Positions 5,844 to 28,264 of a stretch of DNA of 64,000 bases are shown in pieces (position 1 is the stretch's first letter; each line of letters opens with the position of its first letter). A program made the position numbers and the translations under genes. This stretch comes from Nitrososphaeraceae archaeon. GTDB lineage: Archaea > Thermoproteota > Nitrososphaeria > Nitrososphaerales > Nitrososphaeraceae. The notes beneath the pieces are model-generated. The model worked only from the letters and a program-made list of their open reading frames with translations. It ran no database searches and was not told where the DNA came from. The DNA lies in assembly GCA_035250975.1 (NCBI GenBank), contig DATFEP010000040.1:17828-81827 (forward strand), in the 5' to 3' direction.

Positions 5844-5950
5844 GGAGGAGTCGCGAAGCCTGGTCAAACGCGCAGGACTCAAGATCAAATCCTGAATAAT
5901 GGGTGATCCCGTCCTTTAGGGGTTCGTGGGTTCAAATCCCACCTCCTCCA
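5844..5950 (+). tRNA. tRNA-Leu(CAA) with 22-nt intron (5884-5905) at canonical 37/38
   Basis: GGAGGAG/CTCCTCC acceptor stem, CAA anticodon at 5880-5882, BHB motif (CTCA pairs with TGGG, AGA and TGA bulges), long variable arm, GTGGG-TTCAAAT-CCCAC T arm. Confidence 0.93.
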
Positions 5951-11464: not shown

Positions 11465-12682
11465 ATGGTTAAAGAAAAATGTGTACTTGCCTATTCTGGT
11501 GGTCTTGATACTTCAGTATGTATAAAGTATTTACAGTTATTGCATGATCTAGATGTAGTTACTGTTACCGTAAACATTGGACAGAATGATGATTTCGAAG
11601 AGATAGCAAATAGATCTAAACAAGTAGGTGCGATAAAACATTATAATATTGATGCTTCCTCAGAATTCACCCAAAATCACATCATTCCATCTATAAAAGC
11701 AAACGGATTGTATGAAAATCGATATCCGTTAGCTACAGCCTTAGCAAGACCCTTAATAGCTAAAAAAGCTGTAGATATAGCATCAAAGGAAAATGCAAAA
11801 TATATTGCACACGGATGTACCGGCAAAGGTAACGATCAAATAAGATTCGATATTACTATTAGATGCTTAAATCCTGATCTAAAAATTATTGCTCCTATTC
11901 GTGATTTGAATCTGACAAGAGATAAAGAAATACAGTTTGCCAACGAACATAAAATACCTGTAAATACTGAGGTAAAGAAATATAGCATTGACGAAAATTT
12001 ATGGGGCAGATCTATTGAAGGTGGCGATCTAGAGGATCTATTAAATGAACCACCAGATGAGTGTTTCAAATATGTCAAGTTTGATAATCCGAAAGCCGGA
12101 TATTTAGAAATTGATTTTGAAGCTGGTATTCCTGTCTGTGTAGAAGGACAAAGAATGAATTTGACAGATTTGATAAAGTACATAAATATCAAGGCAGGGT
12201 CTTATGGGGTAGGCATAATTGACCATTTGGAAGATAGAGTAATAGGTATCAAATCTAGAGAAATTTATGAATGTCCAGCTGCTTGTGTCTTGATCGAATC
12301 ACACCAAGATCTTGAAAAAATGGTTTTAACTTCCCATGAATTACGATTTAAACATTTGGTAGACCAACAATGGAGTTGGATGACCTACTCAGGACTGTGG
12401 CAAGATCCATTGGTAAACGATTTGGATAGGTTTATAGATGCAACGCAAAACAGAGTTACAGGAACAGTAAAGATGAGAATGCAAAACGGTTCTATGAGGG
12501 TTGTAGGAAGAAGATCAGAATTCTCTTTATACAAAAACGAATTGGCAACTTATTCTTCTGGTTCTATTTTTGATCAAACATTAGCGAAGGGTTTTGTTGA
12601 ATTATGGGGATTACAATCGGTTACTGCAAATTCTATAGCAATTAATTTAAATAAAAAAGAGAATAAAGGAGAAGAACAATAG
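11465..12682 (+). CDS. argG: Argininosuccinate synthase
   Basis: LAYSGGLDTS, HGCTGKGNDQIRF, YSIDENLWGRS, KSREIYE. Confidence 0.98.
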   Translation: MVKEKCVLAYSGGLDTSVCIKYLQLLHDLDVVTVTVNIGQNDDFEEIANRSKQVGAIKHYNIDASSEFTQNHIIPSIKANGLYENRYPLATALARPLIAKKAVDIASKENAKYIAHGCTGKGNDQIRFDITIRCLNPDLKIIAPIRDLNLTRDKEIQFANEHKIPVNTEVKKYSIDENLWGRSIEGGDLEDLLNEPPDECFKYVKFDNPKAGYLEIDFEAGIPVCVEGQRMNLTDLIKYINIKAGSYGVGIIDHLEDRVIGIKSREIYECPAACVLIESHQDLEKMVLTSHELRFKHLVDQQWSWMTYSGLWQDPLVNDLDRFIDATQNRVTGTVKMRMQNGSMRVVGRRSEFSLYKNELATYSSGSIFDQTLAKGFVELWGLQSVTANSIAINLNKKENKGEEQ

Positions 12683-12683
12683 A

Positions 12684-12857
12684 ATGAAGAAAGAATGTAG
12701 TGATTGTGGAGGAGAAATAAATATTCCAGACGATGCCGTGGTTGGCGAAATTGTTTCATGTCCTGATTGCGGAGGCGACTTTGAAATATCTTCAAAGTCA
12801 AATGGTAACATTGAATTAAAAAATGCAGAATCCGTAGGAGAAGACTGGGGAGAATAA
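12684..12857 (+). CDS. lysW: Amino-group carrier protein LysW/ArgW, copy 1 (57 aa, not in ORF track)
   Basis: Translated by hand: MKKECSDCGGEINIPDDAVVGEIVSCPDCGGDFEISSKSNGNIELKNAESVGEDWGE; two CxxC and C-terminal EDWGE. Confidence 0.96.
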   Translation: MKKECSDCGGEINIPDDAVVGEIVSCPDCGGDFEISSKSNGNIELKNAESVGEDWGE

Positions 12858-12869
12858 ACTTGAAAAAAA

Positions 12870-13724
12870 ATGGAACTAGCTATTATTTATGATAAACTAC
12901 GATTTGAAGAAAAAGCTCTCTACGATGATGCAGTAAAGAAAGGAGTTAATACTAGATTACTCGATGTAAAATCTGTTTCAATAAGTACTGAATTTAATGA
13001 TAACCAATATTTTGGAGATATTTTTCTACAAAGATGTATCAGTCATTTTAGAGGACTTTATATCACTTCTTGTTTAGAGTTCTTGGGATATCCGGTAATA
13101 AACAAGTATGAAGTAAGCGAAATATGTGGAAATAAATTAAGAACATCCCTAATTTTAGCAAAATCCAATGTAGCTGCTCCAAAAACATATTTTTGCTTTA
13201 ACTCAGATTCATTTAAACTTCTGATCGATAAGCTTGGTTATCCAATCGTCTTAAAGCCAATAGTGGGATCTTGGGGACGTGGTGTTTTTCCGGTAAGAAA
13301 TGAAGAGATTGCAAATATGTTGATAGAAACACGGGAAGAAAACGATTCTCCATTTTCAAGAATATATTATGTTCAAGAAATGATAAAGAGACCGCCACGC
13401 GATATTCGATGTATCGTGGTAGGAGACCAAATCGTAACTGCAATATATCGTTATTCTGCAGATAATGAATGGAGAACAAATGTAGCCAGAGGAGGTCATA
13501 CTGTCCTAGCTCCTTTAACGAATGAGCTTGAGGAGATTGTTCTAAATGCATCTAAAGCAGTTGGCGGGGGAATTCTTGGTGTTGATATAATGGAAGATAA
13601 AACTCGAGGATTTGTAGTTCATGAAATTAATAGCACTGTCGAATTTCGTGGGGCCTCTCAGGTATCGCAATCTAATATTGCAGGTTACATGATTGATTAT
13701 GTTCTTCAGTTTTCAAAAAAATAA
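12870..13724 (+). CDS. argX: LysW-amino acid ligase, ArgX-like (ATP-grasp)
   Basis: GSWGR, RDIR, WRTNVARGG, EINSTVEFRG; ArgX rather than LysX assigned from signature residues and position next to argG. Confidence 0.8.
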   Translation: MELAIIYDKLRFEEKALYDDAVKKGVNTRLLDVKSVSISTEFNDNQYFGDIFLQRCISHFRGLYITSCLEFLGYPVINKYEVSEICGNKLRTSLILAKSNVAAPKTYFCFNSDSFKLLIDKLGYPIVLKPIVGSWGRGVFPVRNEEIANMLIETREENDSPFSRIYYVQEMIKRPPRDIRCIVVGDQIVTAIYRYSADNEWRTNVARGGHTVLAPLTNELEEIVLNASKAVGGGILGVDIMEDKTRGFVVHEINSTVEFRGASQVSQSNIAGYMIDYVLQFSKK

Positions 13725-13830: not shown

Positions 13831-14883
13831 ATGAAGGTAGGAGTCATAGGAGCATCAGGATATGTTGGTGGCGAGTTAATTAGACTACTTGTAAGTCATC
13901 CAAAAGTGGAGCTTAATATGGTGACTTCTCGACAACAAGCCGGAGAATATGTACATAGAGTTCATCCAAGTCTTAAAGGATTCATTGATCTCACTTTTTC
14001 ACCAATGGATATTAAAAAAGTTTTAGACTCATGTGATTTGGTCTTTGTATCAGTTCCACATGGAAGTGCAAATCAAATAGTGAAAGATCTCTACGATAGT
14101 GATGTTAAAATTATAGACCTTTCTGCTGATTTTAGATTAAAAAATCCTAAAGATTATGTAAAGTGGTATGGATGGGAGCATCCATATCCAGAACTTCTTT
14201 CCAAGTCTGTATACGGTGTCCCAGAATTTCATCGCGAGGAGATTAAAGCCGCAAAATTGGTTTCGTGTCCAGGATGTATGGCAGTCACTTCTTTACTGGC
14301 ACTTAAACCCTTAATAGAACATGATCTTATTGACACGAATCATATCGTTGTTGATAGTAAAATTGGATCTTCTGGGGCAGGAGCTCAAGCTAACGCAGGT
14401 ACTCATCATGCCATGAGATACGGAGTGATTCGACCATATAAACCAGCAAAACATAGGCATACTGGTGAAATAATACAAGAATTAAGTCTTATAGCAAAAA
14501 AAGAGATCAAGATTAGTATGAGTCCTCATGCCGTAAATCTTGTTCGAGGAATACTAACTACAAATCATACATTTCTCAACAAGCCCATTGGTGAGTTAGA
14601 GCTTTGGAAAGTTTATCGAGAGTTCTACAGTCATGAACCATTTATACGTCTCATAAAAGATAAGAAAGGACTTTACAAGTTCCCCGATCCGAAATTTTTG
14701 ATAGGTTCAAACTTTTGTGATATCGGATTTGATATAGATGAAGATAATCAACGTGTTGTTGCACTGTCCGCTTCTGATAATTTAATGAAAGGTGCCGCAG
14801 GATCTGCAATCCAAAATATGAATGTCATGTTTGGATTTGATGAAATGGATGGTCTTAAATACACTCCTCTGACTCCAGTATGA
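13831..14883 (+). CDS. lysY: LysW-aminoadipyl/glutamyl-phosphate reductase (ArgC family)
   Basis: GASGYVGGE, DLSADFR, PGC, HRHTGEI, DNLMKGAAG. Confidence 0.95.
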   Translation: MKVGVIGASGYVGGELIRLLVSHPKVELNMVTSRQQAGEYVHRVHPSLKGFIDLTFSPMDIKKVLDSCDLVFVSVPHGSANQIVKDLYDSDVKIIDLSADFRLKNPKDYVKWYGWEHPYPELLSKSVYGVPEFHREEIKAAKLVSCPGCMAVTSLLALKPLIEHDLIDTNHIVVDSKIGSSGAGAQANAGTHHAMRYGVIRPYKPAKHRHTGEIIQELSLIAKKEIKISMSPHAVNLVRGILTTNHTFLNKPIGELELWKVYREFYSHEPFIRLIKDKKGLYKFPDPKFLIGSNFCDIGFDIDEDNQRVVALSASDNLMKGAAGSAIQNMNVMFGFDEMDGLKYTPLTPV

Positions 14884-15680
14884 TAGTTATCAAAATAGGT
14901 GGAAGTATAGTAGATGGATTACATCCTTCTACTATTTCTGACATCAAAACTCTGCTGGAAAAGGAGAAAATTGTTCTTGTACATGGCGGAGGAAAAGAAG
15001 TCACAAATATTGGAAATAAATTAGGTAAGGAACAAAAGTTTATAGTCTCTCCAGGAGGTGTGAGGAGCAGATTTACAGACAAAGAGACTGTAGAGATTTA
15101 TACGATGGTGATGTCTGGTAAAATAAACAAAGCCATTGTCCAAATGTTATTGAATAGCAATATACGTGCAGTAGGTATTTCTGGAATTGATGGTGCAACC
15201 ATAAAAGCAGAAAGAAAGAAAAAATTGGTTATTCTGAATGCAAAGGGTAGGAAGATGGCAATTGATGGAGGATATACTGGAAAAATAAAAAATGTAGATC
15301 CTGCTCTGATAATGATATTGTTGTCAAATGGTTTTGTTCCTATCATTTCTCCGATCGCTTTGAGTGAGGAAACTGAATTTCTAAATGTAGATGGTGATAG
15401 GGCTGCGGCCTATGTTGCGGGCAGTCTGAGTGCAGATAAAGTTATTTTTATTACCAATGTAAATGGTTTAATTTTAGATGATGAGTTGGTGAAAAATATG
15501 AATTATAGCGAAGCTAAGGCATCATTGCCCAAAATTGGTCATGGAATGGAAAAGAAAGTTCTTGCTTGTACCGAAGCTATAGAAATGGGTGTAAAAGAAG
15601 CGATTATTGCATCAGGCAATGTAGAAAATCCTATATCTGCAGCTCTTTCTCATGCAAATTGTACGGTGATTAGCAAATGA
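14880..15680 (+). CDS. lysZ: LysW-aminoadipate/glutamate kinase (ArgB family)
   Basis: KIGGS, VHGGG, LNVDGDRAAA; ATGA overlap with lysY. Confidence 0.95.
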   Translation: MIVIKIGGSIVDGLHPSTISDIKTLLEKEKIVLVHGGGKEVTNIGNKLGKEQKFIVSPGGVRSRFTDKETVEIYTMVMSGKINKAIVQMLLNSNIRAVGISGIDGATIKAERKKKLVILNAKGRKMAIDGGYTGKIKNVDPALIMILLSNGFVPIISPIALSEETEFLNVDGDRAAAYVAGSLSADKVIFITNVNGLILDDELVKNMNYSEAKASLPKIGHGMEKKVLACTEAIEMGVKEAIIASGNVENPISAALSHANCTVISK

Positions 15681-16858
15681 ACGGCGAGGATCTTTATGTA
15701 GGAAACATCTACCAGAGGTTTCCTGTCAATATATCAAAGGGGAAAGGCGCAACAGTCTGGGATACATCTGGCAGAGAATATATTGATTGTATGGGAGGAT
15801 ATGGAGTTGCCTTGGTTGGGCATTGTAATGACAGGGTGGTACAGGCAATTAAGGATCAAATAGAAAATTTAATAACTTGTCACATGTCCATATATAATGA
15901 TACACGATTAAAATTTCTGCAAAAAATGTCAGAAATTTCTCCGAAACAACTTTCAAAGTTTTTCTTTAGTAATAGCGGAGCAGAATCCGTAGAAGCAGCA
16001 ATTAAATTTTCGAGAAAGTATACTGGAAAAAGTGGAATAATTTCTATGAATGGTGGATATCATGGAAAAACTTTCGGGGCTTTATCTGTAACATTCAATG
16101 AGAAATATAGAAAATCGTTTCAGCCCCTACTTGAAGGAGTAAAATTTGTTCCACCTCATACTCCATCAGTGATCGAGGAGGTATTGGATGAAAGTATCGG
16201 AACGGTAATAGTTGAACCAATCCAGGGAGAAACCGGTATAATAGTCCCGGAAGATGGAATTTTACAAGAAATTAGAGAAATCTGTGACCGTAATAATCTA
16301 GTATTAATTTTTGATGAGATCCAAACTGGATTGGGTAGAACAGGAAAAATGTGGGCCGGACAAAATTGGAATACTACTCCTGATATTATGTGTCTCGCCA
16401 AAGGTATTGCTGGTGGATTGCCTATGGGCTTGACTCTTTGTAAACCTGAAATTCTTGATTCCATAAAAATCGGCGAGCATTCATCAACCTTTGCTGGTAA
16501 CCCACTTGCTTGTTCTGCAGGAATAGCTACAATTGATTCTATCGTGGAAGATAAGCTGCTAGAAAATGCTCTTCACATAGGAAGTTTATTTAAAAATGGA
16601 TTATTAGAGCTACAAAAAAAACATAAAATAATTCGGGACGTAAGAGGATTAGGATTGATGCTTGCAGTAGAATTACGCTTTGACGTAAGAGACGTCTTAA
16701 TGGATGGAATAAAAGAAGGAGTTCTTATGTTATATTCAGGCAGAAATATAATTCGGTTACTTCCTCCTTTAGTGTTAGACGAAGTAAAGGTATTAAAAAC
16801 CTTGGAAATCATGGATAAGATATTGACCAAAGAAGAGGTTAGAAGAAATGTTAAATAA
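15677..16858 (+). CDS. lysJ: LysW-semialdehyde aminotransferase (class III)
   Basis: NSGAESVE, EPIQGE, DEIQTGLGRTG, AKGIAGG, STFAGNP. Confidence 0.93.
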   Translation: MNGEDLYVGNIYQRFPVNISKGKGATVWDTSGREYIDCMGGYGVALVGHCNDRVVQAIKDQIENLITCHMSIYNDTRLKFLQKMSEISPKQLSKFFFSNSGAESVEAAIKFSRKYTGKSGIISMNGGYHGKTFGALSVTFNEKYRKSFQPLLEGVKFVPPHTPSVIEEVLDESIGTVIVEPIQGETGIIVPEDGILQEIREICDRNNLVLIFDEIQTGLGRTGKMWAGQNWNTTPDIMCLAKGIAGGLPMGLTLCKPEILDSIKIGEHSSTFAGNPLACSAGIATIDSIVEDKLLENALHIGSLFKNGLLELQKKHKIIRDVRGLGLMLAVELRFDVRDVLMDGIKEGVLMLYSGRNIIRLLPPLVLDEVKVLKTLEIMDKILTKEEVRRNVK

Positions 16859-17273
16859 TATTGATTCTTTTGATGAACAAATTATTCGGATCCTACAAAA
16901 TGATTCACGTAAATCATTTGTAGAAATAGCTACTTCTGTAGGACTTTCAGAATCTGCAGTAAGAAGAAGAGTTAAAAATTTAATAGAGAATCAAATAATA
17001 AAAAAATTTACTATTGAAGTAAATCAAAAGGAAGAGACAAGCGCAATAACTCTAATTTCAGTCGCTTCGACGTCAGATACTTCTACCGTCACCGCTAGAT
17101 TGTTAAATCTGGAGGGAGTCAAAGTAGTATATGAGATAACTGGACAATATGATATTGCGGCAATAATAAGTGCTTCTACTATATCAGAAATCAATTCCTA
17201 CATTGATGATGTAAGAAAAATTGTAGGCGTTTCTGATACCAATACAGTGATTATCCTAAAAACTCTAAAGTAA
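16848..17273 (+). CDS. lysM: Lrp/AsnC regulator LysM
   Basis: HTH LSESAVRRRV, YEITGQYD; inside lys cluster. Confidence 0.85.
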   Translation: MLNNIDSFDEQIIRILQNDSRKSFVEIATSVGLSESAVRRRVKNLIENQIIKKFTIEVNQKEETSAITLISVASTSDTSTVTARLLNLEGVKVVYEITGQYDIAAIISASTISEINSYIDDVRKIVGVSDTNTVIILKTLK

Positions 17274-17388: not shown

Positions 17389-18597
17389 ATGACACTAAAA
17401 TCGGACGATCCTAACTATTATGCGCATTACTATAATAAAATAGATGAGGGACAAAAAAAAATAAAGGTTCTAGATTCGACTCTAAGAGAAGGAGAACAAC
17501 ATCCTGGAGTATCTTTTACTAGCAAACAGCGGATTCAAATTGCATGGATGTTAGATTCTTTTGGAGTTGACCAAATAGAAATCAGCCCTGTTGTTTCTCA
17601 AGATCATTTTGAAGCAACCAAAATCATAATTAAACAAGGATTAAAAGCAGATATTGTTGCCCATGTTAGGGCAATAAAATCTGATGTGGATACAGCAATT
17701 AAAACTAACGCTGCGTGGGTAGCGACATATATGGGAATTTCTGATATACATTTAAGTGCTAAATTAAAAATTTCTAGAGAAGAAGCAAAAATGAGAGCAA
17801 TAGAAGTAGTCGAATATATAAAATCCCATGGATTAAAATCTCGATTTACAATGGAGGATGCGAGTAGAACTGAACCCTCATTTCTATTAGAAATGTGCAA
17901 AGAAATCAATGGACTGGGCGTTGAAAGAATAAGTATCCCTGATACTGTTGGAATTATGCGACCAAATGGCATGTATAATTTGGTAAAAATGGTTTATGAT
18001 AATATTGATAAATCCAAGAGCTCCCTTGATGTTCATTGTCACAATGATGTTGGATTGGCACTAGCAAATGCATTGGCTGGATGTGAAGCTGGTGCAGATC
18101 AGATTCACACAACAATAGATGGATTTGGGGAAAGAACCGGAATACCTTCTCTCGCTGAAACTTCTATAGCTTTAAATCTCATTTACAAATCTAGCAATAA
18201 TTTTAGGTTACATATGTTGAAAGATTTATCAAAAACAATATCTCAATATACAGGTCTCGAGATTCCAGAATCTACACCGATCGTAGGTGATAGTGCTTAT
18301 AAGCACAAAGCGGGAACACATCTTGCAGCCATTCTTCGAAATCCTTCTGCTTATGAGATAATTGAACCCAAACTTGTGGGAAATAGAAGAAAAATCGTTT
18401 TTGGCGAGCTAGCAGGTAAAAACGGAGCAGCTTACCTTTTATCGTTATTGGGTCTTGAAACAAGCAAACATGAGGCTGAAACTCTTGCCCGTGGATTAAA
18501 GGAACTTAGAATGGGTGACGTTTTAGAATTGTTTCTGGATGAACGTCTAGAAAGAAAAATACTTAATGAAGGATCGCCAAATGTGATAAAGGAGTAA
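17389..18597 (+). CDS. Homocitrate synthase (LeuA family)
   Basis: DSTLREGEQ, PDTVG, HCHND, GERTG, HKAGTH; lysine-cluster context. Confidence 0.85.
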   Translation: MTLKSDDPNYYAHYYNKIDEGQKKIKVLDSTLREGEQHPGVSFTSKQRIQIAWMLDSFGVDQIEISPVVSQDHFEATKIIIKQGLKADIVAHVRAIKSDVDTAIKTNAAWVATYMGISDIHLSAKLKISREEAKMRAIEVVEYIKSHGLKSRFTMEDASRTEPSFLLEMCKEINGLGVERISIPDTVGIMRPNGMYNLVKMVYDNIDKSKSSLDVHCHNDVGLALANALAGCEAGADQIHTTIDGFGERTGIPSLAETSIALNLIYKSSNNFRLHMLKDLSKTISQYTGLEIPESTPIVGDSAYKHKAGTHLAAILRNPSAYEIIEPKLVGNRRKIVFGELAGKNGAAYLLSLLGLETSKHEAETLARGLKELRMGDVLELFLDERLERKILNEGSPNVIKE

Positions 18598-18603
18598 AAG
18601 AAT

Positions 18604-18771
18604 ATGGTCAAATGTAAAGAATGTGATGCAGAAATAAGAATCCCCGATGATTCAATTGAAGGTGAAATAGTTGCCTGTCCAGATTGTGGTTCAAGCTATG
18701 AACTAGTCAAGGGAGCAGATGGATTCAGTATTAAGCCATCTCAAGTAGTTGGCGAGGATTGGGGACAGTGA
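18604..18771 (+). CDS. lysW: Amino-group carrier protein LysW, copy 2 (55 aa, ends EDWGQ; not in ORF track)
   Basis: Translated by hand: MVKCKECDAEIRIPDDSIEGEIVACPDCGSSYELVKGADGFSIKPSQVVGEDWGQ. Confidence 0.93.
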   Translation: MVKCKECDAEIRIPDDSIEGEIVACPDCGSSYELVKGADGFSIKPSQVVGEDWGQ

Positions 18772-19628
18772 CTGAGAGAAAGAACAGAACCTCCCTCACT
18801 CTTCTTTATGATAATATACGCTGGGAAGAAAAAGCTATCTACGAGTCTGCTAGAAAAAGAGGAATTGACATAACGAATGTTGATTGTAAAGATCTAATTT
18901 TGGAACTAGACGGTCCTAGCTATTCTAATAAAATAATTATACAAAGATGTGTTAGTTATTTCAAAAGTCTTCATTCTACTGCTGCACTGGAAGGTTTGGG
19001 AGCTAGTGTTATTAATCCACTTAATACTTCTATTGTTTGTGGTAATAAATTATTTACACATATGAAATTGAAAAACGCTGGAATAAAAACTCCAAAAGTC
19101 ATAACAACTTTTTCATATGAAGCCGCACTTTCTGCTCTTGATATTTTTGGATATCCGACCATAATTAAACCCACAATTGGAAGTTGGGGAAGATTAATTG
19201 CGTTACTAAAAGACAAAGATGCAGCGAAGGCTGTAATTGAAGATAGACAACATATGTTTCCACTTTATCAAATATATTATTTTGAGGAATTTGTTGATAG
19301 ACCGCCTAGGGATATAAGAGCAATAGTAATAGGCGATACAGTAGTGGCTGCTATATATCGTTATTCGGAAAATAGCGAATGGAAAACCAATATGGCTTTA
19401 GGAGGCAGAGCAGAATCATGTCCAATTACAAAAGAGCTCGAAGATATTTGTATAAAATCTACACAAGCAGTAAATGGAAAAATAGTTGGAGTAGATCTTA
19501 TGGAAAGTTCACGAGATGGTTTATTGGTTCACGAAGTTAATAATACAACAGAGTTTAAAAATACTGTCAGAGTTACAGGAATACCAATTCAAGATATGAT
19601 AGTAGATTACTCTTTGCAATACAACTAA
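18768..19628 (+). CDS. lysX: LysW-alpha-aminoadipate ligase (likely GTG start overlapping lysW stop, GTGA)
   Basis: GSWGRL, RDIR, WKTNMALGG, EVNNTTEFKN (LysX-type EFKN). Confidence 0.88.
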   Translation: MTERKNRTSLTLLYDNIRWEEKAIYESARKRGIDITNVDCKDLILELDGPSYSNKIIIQRCVSYFKSLHSTAALEGLGASVINPLNTSIVCGNKLFTHMKLKNAGIKTPKVITTFSYEAALSALDIFGYPTIIKPTIGSWGRLIALLKDKDAAKAVIEDRQHMFPLYQIYYFEEFVDRPPRDIRAIVIGDTVVAAIYRYSENSEWKTNMALGGRAESCPITKELEDICIKSTQAVNGKIVGVDLMESSRDGLLVHEVNNTTEFKNTVRVTGIPIQDMIVDYSLQYN

Positions 19629-19642
19629 TATTATTATTAAAA

Positions 19643-20758
19643 TTGGTCTCACCTAATTATGCTGTGGAACTCTTAAAAAGATCAATAGAGCTCTATACAC
19701 CCTCAAGATCTGAATCTCAATTAGCTAATATGCTTAAGGAAAAATGTATTGATGATCTGGGATTTGAACAGGCTCAGATAGATAGTGTAGGAAATGTTAT
19801 AGCTACAAAGGGAACAGGATACCCTAGGATTCTACTTTGTGGACATATGGATACAGTTCCAAATAAAGTGCCTATCAGAATAGAAGATGGTTTATTGTAT
19901 GGTCGTGGTTCCTCAGATGCTAAAGCTCCTTTAATCGCCATGCTCTTAGCAGCTTCGGAATTTCCTAAACAAAACGGAACAATTATTTTCGCAGGCGTAG
20001 TAGATGAAGAAGGAAGCGCTACTGGTAGCAAACAACTTGTTAAAAATAACATAGAGGTTGATTATGCAATTTTTGGTGAACCGAGTGGCATCGAGAACAT
20101 AACGATATCGTATAAAGGTAGGTTAGCAATTAAACTAATATGCGACGTACTCCAAAGTGCTCATGCAAGTGCCCCTTGGCTAGCAAAAAATTCGATTGAA
20201 GAATCTTATGAGTTTTGGCAGGCCATAAAAAAGGAAATTAACAAAACAAACAATAGTGAAAAAAAAACTAGTTCAATAAGTTGCAGTCTGACGGAAATAA
20301 CTGGAGGGTCGAGTCATAATGTTACTCCTCAAAAATGCAAGCTTACCATGGACATACGAATTCCTACTACAAATACATGCCAACAAGTATTAGACATGAT
20401 CGATAAAGTAATTTCTAATATTTCTAGGCAAAAAGGAATAAAATCCAATTATATAATCGAAGATTTTACAGATCCATTTGAAGCAGATCATTCATCTCCT
20501 TTGGTAAGGTCTCTAGTTCTTGCAATACTGGATGTCTGTAAAAAACGACCGAATTTATTACGAAAAACTGGTACTGGTGACATGAATATTATTGGTAATG
20601 CGCTTAAAATACCAGTAGTTACTTATGGACCGGGAGATCCTCATTCTTCCCATAGTGTAGACGAGCATGTTGATATCCAAGAATATATTACCGGAATAGA
20701 GGTCTTTAAAAGATCGCTTTTTCATATGTCTAGGTTACACAATTATCAAAGAAAATAA
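19643..20758 (+). CDS. lysK: LysW-lysine/ornithine hydrolase (M20 peptidase)
   Basis: GHMDTVP, GRGSSDAK, VDEE, GEPS, GTGDMN, YGPGD, HSVDE. Confidence 0.92.
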   Translation: MVSPNYAVELLKRSIELYTPSRSESQLANMLKEKCIDDLGFEQAQIDSVGNVIATKGTGYPRILLCGHMDTVPNKVPIRIEDGLLYGRGSSDAKAPLIAMLLAASEFPKQNGTIIFAGVVDEEGSATGSKQLVKNNIEVDYAIFGEPSGIENITISYKGRLAIKLICDVLQSAHASAPWLAKNSIEESYEFWQAIKKEINKTNNSEKKTSSISCSLTEITGGSSHNVTPQKCKLTMDIRIPTTNTCQQVLDMIDKVISNISRQKGIKSNYIIEDFTDPFEADHSSPLVRSLVLAILDVCKKRPNLLRKTGTGDMNIIGNALKIPVVTYGPGDPHSSHSVDEHVDIQEYITGIEVFKRSLFHMSRLHNYQRK

Positions 20759-20812: not shown

Positions 20813-21910
20813 ATGTTATACTTTGTTGGAATAGGAATAGACGGTTGTAACAGTATAAGTTTAAACGCTATAGAAATTATGAAAGGTTGTCAGAAAATTT
20901 ATATTGAAAGATTCACAAGTTACATAAGTAAAAAAGAAATAGAAAAACTAGCTCAACTTATAGACCCCGAGAAGAAAAAACAAATTAATTTAGTTCAACG
21001 TTGGTTTATTGAGGATGGAAAAGAGATACTTTCCAAATCTAAAAATGCAATTGTTGCAATAGTAACTTATGGTGACCCATTTATGGCAACAACATTGAAT
21101 GAATTACTGATAAGAGCTAAAAGAAATTTAATTGAAACACGTATTATTCACGGTTCTTCTGGACTTTTTTCTTTCATCGGGGAAAGTGGCCTTCATAACT
21201 ATAAATTCGGTCGTACTACTACAATAATGTCAGATCCTCAATCTGCAATAAGTGTCTATAATATTATTTATGAGAATCTAAAAGTAGGTAATCATACCTT
21301 GATATTAACTGAATATAACAATAATGATGATAGAGATTTTTTCTTTCTAAATCCTCAATTAGCTCTTGAAATGTTAGTGGAAGTTGAAAAAGATCTAAAA
21401 TATGGAATTATATCAGAAGATACTTTTATTATAGTTGGATCAAGAATCGGAACTGATTCTCAAAAAATTCAATCAGGAAAGATTCACTCTTTTGAGAATA
21501 TGGATTTTGGTAAAGGACCTCATTCTATAATCATTCCTGGACACCTTCACTTTACTGAAATTGATTCTATAACATCACTTTATCAAAATTTTGACAATCC
21601 ATCTGATAATACAAAACTATTCCAACACCTTGCCGTATCAATGGTTAACAGATATCTCCCAAAAGCTAAAGAAGCGCTAAAAACAATGAAGTCATTTCTA
21701 GATAAAGAAAATAGTATCTCCACTAATAACAATAAACCTGATAATAAGGGTATGTACAATGTACTAGAAAACGCTGAATATTACTTGCTTGATTCAGAGA
21801 GATTTCTTAACCAAAATAAATATGAATTAGCCGTCTTAAGCATTGGTTATGCAGAAGGATTAATAGATTCATTACGATTTCAGAAAAATATCAATCCATG
21901 GTTATCTTAA
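20813..21910 (+). CDS. dph5: Diphthine synthase with C-terminal DUF357-like domain
   Basis: GDPFMATT, YKFGRTTT, HTLIL, PHSIIIPG; tail NAEYYLLDSERF..LAVLSIGYAEGLIDSLR. Confidence 0.9.
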   Translation: MLYFVGIGIDGCNSISLNAIEIMKGCQKIYIERFTSYISKKEIEKLAQLIDPEKKKQINLVQRWFIEDGKEILSKSKNAIVAIVTYGDPFMATTLNELLIRAKRNLIETRIIHGSSGLFSFIGESGLHNYKFGRTTTIMSDPQSAISVYNIIYENLKVGNHTLILTEYNNNDDRDFFFLNPQLALEMLVEVEKDLKYGIISEDTFIIVGSRIGTDSQKIQSGKIHSFENMDFGKGPHSIIIPGHLHFTEIDSITSLYQNFDNPSDNTKLFQHLAVSMVNRYLPKAKEALKTMKSFLDKENSISTNNNKPDNKGMYNVLENAEYYLLDSERFLNQNKYELAVLSIGYAEGLIDSLRFQKNINPWLS

Positions 21911-23965: not shown

Positions 23966-24039
23966 TGGGCCGAAAGGGAGTTGAACCCTCGACCTTTCGA
24001 TTATCAGTCGAACGCTCCACCAAGCTGAGCTATCGGCCC
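23966..24039 (-). tRNA. tRNA-Ile(GAT)
   Basis: Reverse complement GGGCCGATAGCTCAGCTTGGTGGAGCGTTCGACTGATAATCGAAAGGTCGAGGGTTCAACTCCCTTTCGGCCCA folds as a cloverleaf. Confidence 0.96.
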
Positions 24040-28189: not shown

Positions 28190-28264
28190 GCGAGGTTAGC
28201 CTAGGCCGGTTAGGGTACGAGCTTCCCAAGCTCGGGGTCGCGGGTTCAAATCCCGCATCTCGCA
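28190..28264 (+). tRNA. tRNA-Gly(CCC)
   Basis: GCGAGGT/ATCTCGC acceptor, CGAGC-TT-CCC-AA-GCTCG anticodon arm, GCGGG-TTCAAAT-CCCGC. Confidence 0.95.

Follow-up and report, generated by a model that had tools for sequence, protein, structure and literature searches.

Can a LysW carrier protein work when the residue that bears its substrate is encoded as glutamine rather than glutamate? The question is raised by a stretch of 64,000 nucleotides from a Nitrososphaeraceae archaeon (GenBank assembly GCA_035250975.1, contig DATFEP010000040.1, positions 17,828 to 81,827 of the forward strand), which was analyzed as a whole and is called the window here; its genome is denoted G000 (G+C content, 30.6%). 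The window holds two lysW genes. Each lies immediately before a ligase of its own, of the ArgX type for copy 1 and of the LysX type for copy 2. This arrangement had been proposed in an earlier note on the same DNA, and the open reading frames (ORFs), profiles, and motifs confirm it. Copy 2, the lysine-side carrier (LysW2), ends in EDWGQ.

The lysine-side carrier and its terminal codon

The lysW2 ORF (window 18604..18771, plus strand; translation MVKCKECDAEIRIPDDSIEGEIVACPDCGSSYELVKGADGFSIKPSQVVGEDWGQ, that is, MVKC...VVGEDWGQ) closes with the codons GAG GAT TGG GGA CAG TGA (window 18754-18771). LysW2 was aligned end to end with the solved proteins 3vpb_E, 3wwl_A, and 5k2m_E, all three of which end in EDWGE, and its glutamine fell opposite their terminal glutamate. 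The absence of the terminal glutamate from copy 2, as claimed in the earlier note, is therefore supported by the codons, the ORF, the profile, and the alignment to solved LysW.

LysW2 otherwise resembles the LysW/ArgW proteins of Thermus thermophilus, Sulfurisphaera tokodaii, and Thermococcus kodakarensis (3wwl, 3vpb, and 5k2m). Like them, it is about 55 amino acids (aa) long, carries two CxxC pairs, is acidic in its body, and has EDWG in its tail, and its gene clusters with those for LysX/ArgX, LysZ, LysY, LysJ, and LysK. The zinc-ribbon pairs of LysW2 are Cys4, Cys7, Cys25, and Cys28, which are invariant across 13 aligned orthologs, and 12 Asp plus Glu residues stand against 5 Lys plus Arg residues, as counted in the sequence. 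The bacterial-type model TIGR01206 gave 32.7 bits, under its cut-off of 53.2, and copy 1 likewise fell under this cut-off. By profile, size, zinc ribbon, and gene neighborhood, LysW2 is thus a LysW/ArgW protein that has kept EDWG and lacks the terminal glutamate. It differs from the solved proteins in two respects: they end in glutamate, whereas LysW2 ends in the amide of the attachment site, and they are single, shared carriers, whereas here there are two paralogs, each with its own ligase.

The stop of lysW2 and the start of lysX share the letters GTGA, composed of the G of CAG plus TGA and supplying the GTG start of the next ORF. An alternative lysX start, TTG, lies at 18759; relatives show the same overlap. 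The earlier note had reasoned that GAG would preserve this overlap equally well, and relatives do end in GAGTGA (G300, G282, G339, G229, G410, and G015).

The lysW2 gene is covered by contigs of four runs, one an independent DNA run and three from RNA libraries that belong to different studies, and no difference at positions 18766-18768 was found among the 40 best-supported differences listed for these runs (69 weaker differences were present besides). Since RNA libraries can contain DNA, this coverage is only a hint of transcription. In all four runs, the contigs are interrupted where they reach the conserved tail EDWGQ (window 18740-18780). Two loose ends at 18740 (X16 and X17) run into sequences that we took as those of related strains, since the last ~30 bases are common to strains.

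Occurrence and evolution of the terminal glutamine

The window's family is denoted f1, its sister family (records titled Nitrosopumilaceae) f2, and two further families f3 and f5. When 101 f1 genomes were searched with LysW2, 96 gave a match, and the best 30 loci all ended in EDWGQ (30/30). From a collection of 5.8 billion proteins, 72 homologs were retrieved: 60 ended in EDWGQ and 6 in EDWGE, 2 had odd Gln-ended tails, and 4 were truncated or frameshifted. The odd tails (P0013 and P0036) consist of one duplicated tail, EDWGQWDWGQ, and one EDWDQ; the four truncated or run-on homologs probably reflect contig ends or frameshifts. At the DNA level, the pattern E-D-W-G-(Q/E/H/D)-stop matched 380 of the 401 genomes of the class and gave hardly any control matches; the Gln-only pattern matched 305 of the 401. 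By family, Gln-ended LysW was found by pattern in 78/78 genomes of f1, 219/223 of f2, 6/10 of f3, and 1/4 of f5; elsewhere in the class, the count was 0/85 (0/21 for the other families of the order and 0/64 for other orders). The tallies of the f1 search and of both patterns include six genomes flagged as unpublished (G035, G077, G230, G309, G353, and G389), and no statement rests on these alone. The best 80 W2-type loci among GTDB species representatives comprised 61 ending in Gln and 19 ending in Glu. Such a recurrence goes far beyond what chance would give. In named records, these proteins appear under Nitrososphaeraceae, Nitrososphaera, Nitrosocosmicus, Nitrosopolaris, Nitrosopumilus, Nitrosarchaeum, Nitrosopelagicus, and Nitrosomirales.

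Although the pattern allowed both His and Asp at the terminus, neither occurred in 150 listed rows, and every intact LysW ORF that was read, in the sets of f1 best loci, cross-genus, cross-family, and species-representative loci, ends in Q or E. A terminus limited to these two residues fits a need for the gamma-carbonyl. The confinement of glutamine to four related families is what would be expected if a lineage-specific maturation capacity were needed. The earlier note had allowed that GAG in related genomes might expose the glutamine as an error; comparison of C-termini across Nitrososphaeria found it conserved, which disposes of that objection. Sequencing error and private mutation are ruled out as its source by the orthologs, the homologs, the class-wide pattern, the species-representative loci, and the read contigs.

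A tree of 36 rows was built from concatenated LysK, LysX, LysY, LysZ, and LysJ. Its topology was (f4,(f6+f10,((f3,f5),(f2,f1)))), and the clade containing every Gln-ended carrier received 100% in the Shimodaira-Hasegawa-like approximate likelihood ratio test (SH-aLRT). On this tree, the terminus changed between Q and E at least seven times in copy 2 and at least three times in copy 1; further flips within genera were seen in G037, G229, and G410. Families f4, f6, and f10 have two Glu-ended LysW proteins, and other orders have one Glu-ended LysW common to ArgX and LysX. The carrier duplication therefore predates the glutamine.

The terminal glutamine is written CAG or CAA, before TGA, TAA, or TAG, and with or without the lysX overlap, indicating that selection acts on the amino acid. 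For the same reasons, and because Glu-ended relatives keep GAGTGA, selection on the nucleotide context of the lysX start was rejected, as was stop-codon read-through, since the stop codon differs between relatives. In f2, exactly one Gln match by pattern was present in 215 of the 223 genomes, two in 4, and none in 4. The combination of Glu in copy 1 and Gln in copy 2 is nearly fixed in this family, and the Gly codon next to it is free to vary (GGA, GGG, GGC, or GGT). We read this pattern as selection for Gln, though related genomes are not independent observations. These data show that the Gln terminus is real, old, selected, and exchanged only with Glu.

The earlier note had also taken the glutamine to distinguish a dedicated lysine carrier, and here the combinations of termini across f1 contradict it. 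In the window's genus, copy 1 ends in Glu and copy 2 in Gln, except in G037, where both end in Gln. Both copies end in Gln in five genera (g3, g10, g12, g14, and g18), the assignment is reversed in g5 and g16 (Gln in copy 1 and Glu in copy 2), and four genera (g2, g9, g13, and g17) have a single Gln-ended LysW after loss or decay of copy 1. Both copies end in Glu in G015. Ending in Gln does not in itself identify a carrier as the lysine-side one.

Several genera show decay or loss of the arginine-side lysW. G017 has an unrecognizable lysW1 remnant without cysteines or an EDWG tail (L051:14004-14180, minus strand), and G013 has an untranslated gap at the place of lysW1 (L050:13990-14200). Nitrosocosmicus-type genomes (L034-L038) have no arginine-side lysW and a single Gln-ended carrier. 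In g9, lysW1 and argX are both missing from the locus, where LysX is the one ligase left.

By pattern, 53 of 79 f1 genomes have only Gln termini: 30 of these carry two copies and 23 a single copy. The remaining 26 are mixed. The complete, one-contig genomes G001 and G032 contain one LysW according to NF041070, which is Gln-ended (a second pattern match in G001 ends in TGG and is a false positive), and the complete genomes G014 and G079 contain two, both Gln-ended. Profile searches found no ArgJ, DapB, or DapF in these four genomes or in G000. A sole Gln-ended carrier in the absence of ArgJ, DapB, and DapF indicates that the Gln form is the working carrier and not a decoy; in Gln-only genomes it must function. 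A role as decoy or regulator, which the earlier note had offered, is therefore excluded for genomes without a Glu-ended carrier. Matches to the LysA family stayed under the cut-off in 5/5 genomes (103-249 bits versus 297.9; contig C7:2998-3621 in G000). They were not read as a diaminopimelate pathway because DapB and DapF were not found, and they are possibly another group IV decarboxylase.

Loading of a glutamine-ended carrier

Synthesis of lysine and arginine on LysW is defined by a terminal glutamate whose gamma-carboxyl bears the substrate. Ammonia-oxidizing archaea rank among the most abundant microorganisms of soil and ocean, and most of them encode the substrate-bearing LysW residue as Gln. 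The Gln-ended LysW is a variant of the known LysW system in an ecologically dominant group. Since many genomes lack a Glu-ended carrier and no alternative route was found in them, these archaea rely for lysine and arginine on a step absent from the literature searched. Judging from gene content, an undescribed uncapping or attachment step must exist, and the options of deamidation, transamidation, and alpha-carboxyl ligation listed in the earlier note are all still live. The literature search did not find the string EDWGQ and found nothing related to LysW together with deamidation. In the portions available, a Nitrosopumilus metabolic model infers the LysW route from gene presence only, and a term search of a 2025 study of LysX, LysZ, and LysY specificity did not return the word glutamine.

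We lean toward a reading in which LysW2 is a Gln-capped pro-carrier that is deamidated to Glu and then used canonically. LysW2 would be made as a capped pro-form, its C-terminal Gln being the gamma-amide of the substrate-bearing Glu, and an amidohydrolase would turn Gln to Glu once per molecule. LysX would then ligate alpha-aminoadipate to the gamma-carboxyl of the resulting Glu, and the shared LysZ, LysY, LysJ, and LysK would process the adduct as in Thermus and Sulfolobus. LysK would free lysine and regenerate LysW-Glu, so that the cap would matter only for newly made protein. We infer both the deamidation step and its agent. A homolog search of G000 found lysY, lysZ, and lysK to be single and found one operon lysJ, other aminotransferase homologs being distant (≤31%); no M20 paralog of LysK was found at E≤1e-3. 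One downstream set must therefore serve both carriers, and with one enzyme set, Glu- and Gln-ended carriers should give the same kind of adduct.

Mycobacterial Pup likewise ends in Gln (Glu in some species), is deamidated by Dop, and is ligated through its gamma-carboxylate; the enzyme that reverses the ligation also deamidates. The Pup-Dop-PafA system is like the present one in having a small protein whose ligation residue alternates between Q and E in related species (here with the at least seven and at least three changes given above). The likeness is one of analogy and not of homology, although no search aimed at Pup, Dop, or PafA homologs was made. Among the differences, ligation here falls to an ATP-grasp enzyme, a free amino acid and not a protein lysine serves as acceptor, the hydrolase is an M20 metalloenzyme, and deamidation is only inferred. 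The missing step may be a C-terminal protein-glutamine deamidase, which would be a Pup/Dop parallel in primary metabolism, or a new loading chemistry.

The first candidate for the deamidase is LysK itself, a possible but doubtful assignment. It is favored because Gln is the smallest gamma-glutamyl amide that LysK could hydrolyze, and it would be the most economical candidate, with ammonia as the leaving group and the acyl side of the normal substrate unchanged. A less probable second candidate, improbable in its own right, is a single Nit1/Nit2-like C-N hydrolase. This enzyme was present in 5/5 genomes tested, two of 0.8-0.9 Mb among them (contig C39:36030-36860 in G000, outside the window), with its catalytic Glu, Lys, and Cys invariant, and it is nearest to deaminated-glutathione amidase (NF033621, 230 bits, under the cut-off of 355). 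In the four Gln-permissive families, all 20 genomes searched (20/20) have a counterpart of the Nit-like amidase with 48-58% identity; they include eight Glu/Glu genomes in which the gene is intact, as well as G015. Probable orthologs (35-39% identity in f16 and f17) were found in Glu-only orders. Its presence in Glu/Glu genomes and in Glu-only orders makes it a candidate that does not discriminate. A predicted complex of the Nit-like amidase with LysW2 received a score of 0.00 and a mark of 0.32, values that speak neither for binding nor against it. In G015, the only Glu/Glu genome of f1, the Nit-like gene is frameshifted, a single case in an 81%-complete assembly.

If neither of these enzymes is the deamidase, some other enzyme is the candidate. 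A search for an EgtC-like N-terminal nucleophile (Ntn) hydrolase with PF13230 gave only weak partial matches of 18.7-27.6 bits inside frames of 302-616 aa (G000, G001, G032, G014, and G079). No stand-alone class-II glutamine-amidotransferase-like hydrolase was found in place of LysK in the operon, where the M20 LysK was present. The transglutaminase core PF01841 was found in 0/4 Gln-bearing f2 genomes, the complete genome G108 included, which excludes a transglutaminase-type enzyme as a general agent. When two f3 loci were compared, one with Gln and one with Glu (L064 and L066), their neighborhoods revealed no extra conserved gene.

The ligases and LysK were then set against the terminus. Three independent contrasts were drawn, one each within f5, f3, and f1. 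No LysX or LysK column distinguished the two termini in every one of them, and the columns that separated two contrasts shared no residue, bar two conservative LysK positions. The idea that LysX, LysK, or ArgX co-varies with the residue at the carrier's end was rejected, since no column follows that residue in all three contrasts; global associations between columns and terminus look phylogenetic. In genomes where both carriers end in Gln, the ArgX motif is still the one seen in Glu-only outgroups, WRTNV(A/S)RGG...EF(R/H)GA. The ArgX of f2 independently became FKTN(I/V)A(L/A)GA. In the whole Gln-permissive clade, LysX reads WKTNMALGG with His98, Glu173, and Ile186; the corresponding outgroup residues are WRTNT(A/S)RG(G/A), Thr, Gln, and Phe. 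The changed residues of the window's LysX (18768-19628) are 98, 173, 186, and 206-211, and position 209 is probably equivalent to a published specificity position, Thr203 of Thermus LysX. Eight fixed LysK differences are likewise specific to the Gln-permissive clade. Since the LysX and LysK changes represent a single evolutionary event, they constitute a lead and not a correlation.

RimK, the ribosomal protein S6 glutamate ligase, belongs to the ATP-grasp family of LysX/ArgX and works on the C-terminal residue of an acidic tail; the available part of PMC10375531 describes an arginine, common to RimK and LysX, that holds the C-terminal residue. RimK differs in adding glutamate processively at the alpha-carboxyl, whereas LysX here may use either the alpha- or the gamma-carboxyl. 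It is conceivable, if distinctly unlikely, that LysX makes a peptide bond to aminoadipate at the alpha-carboxyl of LysW2, with the side chain serving only as a recognition element and LysK acting as a carboxypeptidase. Such a reaction would agree with the scores of LysX (277.6 bits) and ArgX (259.9 bits) to the RimK family model TIGR00768, with the ligation by RimK at the alpha-carboxyl of a C-terminal Glu (PMC10375531, in the part available), and with the absence from Gln-permissive LysX of both arginines of the R-TN-x-A-R-GG motif; release would be chemically possible, since M20 enzymes are N-acyl-amino-acid hydrolases. However, the terminus is never other than Q or E, ArgX with an unchanged outgroup motif works in Gln-only genomes, and the same altered LysX serves a Glu-ended copy 2 in G004, G016, and G015 and in the Glu/Glu genomes of f5 and f3. 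The one LysZ/Y/J/K set of the window's genome would also face both gamma-linked adducts and alpha-linked adducts that are two atoms shorter. Amide exchange, in which LysX/ArgX or another enzyme would swap the amide nitrogen of Gln for the amine of aminoadipate or glutamate and no free LysW-Glu would occur at first loading, is quite improbable. It could take the form of a phosphate-assisted route via the same acyl-phosphate intermediate, as proposed for Dop. Amide exchange needs no extra enzyme and suits the tight GTGA coupling of lysW2 and lysX; it also suits the LysX motif, which changed throughout the clade on the same branch on which Gln first occurs. Against it, ATP-grasp ligases are not known to activate amides, the canonical-motif ArgX must also use Gln-ended carriers, and the absence of PF01841 from the four Gln-bearing f2 genomes searched removes a transglutaminase-type enzyme as a general agent.

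Two further explanations dispense with any loading of the Gln form as such. An unloadable decoy, regulator, or tolerated defect, with the Glu-ended copy carrying all substrate, would suit the window's genome, where a Glu-ended copy exists, and Sulfolobus runs both pathways with one LysW (PMC6038301 and PMC12998189, in the parts available). This explanation is nevertheless hardly credible in view of the 53 f1 genomes without a Glu-ended terminus by pattern and the four complete ones confirmed by profile that lack ArgJ, DapB, and DapF; moreover, Gln has been kept over family-level divergence with the zinc-ribbon cysteines and the EDWG tail intact. Mistranslation might instead place Glu at the Gln codon, leaving a fraction active without processing; its sole basis is that archaeal tRNA-Gln is first charged with Glu in the indirect pathway. 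This pathway is general in archaea, yet Gln termini occur in only four related families of the class, and a rare error would be unlikely to supply a carrier used stoichiometrically through five steps. We regard mistranslation as very improbable.

Several points weigh against deamidation of a capped pro-carrier. Sequence comparison provides only candidates for the deamidase. Glu-only lineages also carry LysK, and some carry probable Nit orthologs, so that either candidate would need a lineage-specific change. Glu/Glu genomes are rare in the two large families (G015 in f1; G229 and G410 in f2); Gln thus seems favored and not merely tolerated, which simple maturation does not explain. The altered LysX motif arose on the same branch and could reflect changed ligase chemistry, and the RNA-library contigs may contain DNA. 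Instead of a simple return of Gln to Glu, a new loading chemistry in mesophilic ammonia-oxidizing archaea, by amide exchange driven by the ligase or at the alpha-carboxyl, might be reflected in the WKTNMALGG motif of LysX, with Gln selected because it sets how lysine and arginine synthesis share one enzyme set; taken as a whole, we consider this proposal unlikely.

Organization of the cluster and other features of the window

Both lysW genes and their LysX/ArgX ligases lie within the lysZ-lysY-lysJ-lysK cluster, and the gene order is kept in the 38 related loci mapped. The best solved relative of LysK is 5xoy_A, a [LysW]-lysine hydrolase (E, 2.3e-46). The features are collected in Table 1.

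Table 1. Features of the LysW cluster in the window
Feature	Window coordinates	Strand	Basis
argG (argininosuccinate synthase-like), first gene of conserved cluster	11465..12682	+	name from sequence reading; position kept in related loci
lysW copy 1, arginine side, 57 aa, ends EDWGE	12684..12857	+	NF041070 94.0 bits (cut-off 75)
ArgX-type ATP-grasp ligase, motifs WRTNVARGG and VEFRGA	12870..13724	+	TIGR02144 287.6 bits; rimK_fam 259.9 bits
lysY/argC reductase, single copy in genome	13831..14883	+	TIGR01850 432.1 bits; one tblastn match in G000
lysZ, [LysW]-aminoadipate/[LysW]-glutamate kinase, single copy	14880..15680	+	NF010662 283.0 bits (cut-off 194); one G000 match
lysJ aminotransferase	15677..16858	+	TIGR00707 402.8 bits (just under cut-off 410.05); LysJ models 326-348 bits, under cut-offs
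LysM-type Lrp/AsnC regulator	16848..17273	+	NF040947 172.8 bits (just under cut-off 180)
Homocitrate synthase-like (isopropylmalate synthase/homocitrate synthase family)	17389..18597	+	TIGR02146 366.8 bits (cut-off 413.55) and NF002085 408.4 bits (cut-off 517), both under; place in lysine cluster conserved
lysW copy 2, lysine side, 55 aa, ends EDWGQ	18604..18771	+	NF041070 83.8 bits (cut-off 75)
Terminal CAG (Gln) codon, site of substrate-bearing Glu in known LysW	18766..18768	+	alignment to solved LysW
LysX-type ATP-grasp ligase, motifs WKTNMALGG and TEFKN	18768..19628	+	TIGR02144 319.7 bits; TIGR00768 rimK_fam 277.6 bits
lysK, M20 [LysW]-lysine/ornithine hydrolase	19643..20758	+	TIGR01902 273.6 bits (cut-off 163.1); NF003367 282.9 bits (under cut-off 363)

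After lysK, the cluster continues with genes for diphthine synthase and a KaiC-like ATPase. The diphthine synthase (window 20813-21910) matched TIGR00522 at 193 bits over residues 1-257 and has an extra C-terminal stretch of ~100 aa. In most of the f1, f2, and f5 loci mapped, but not in outgroup loci, its gene immediately follows lysK. Elsewhere in the window, Rfam placed a third tRNA at 5844-5950 (45.6 bits; 107 bases), where ARAGORN gave none; it is probably intron bearing. The other tRNAs of the window are tRNA-Ile at 23966-24039 on the minus strand and tRNA-Gly at 28190-28264 on the plus strand.

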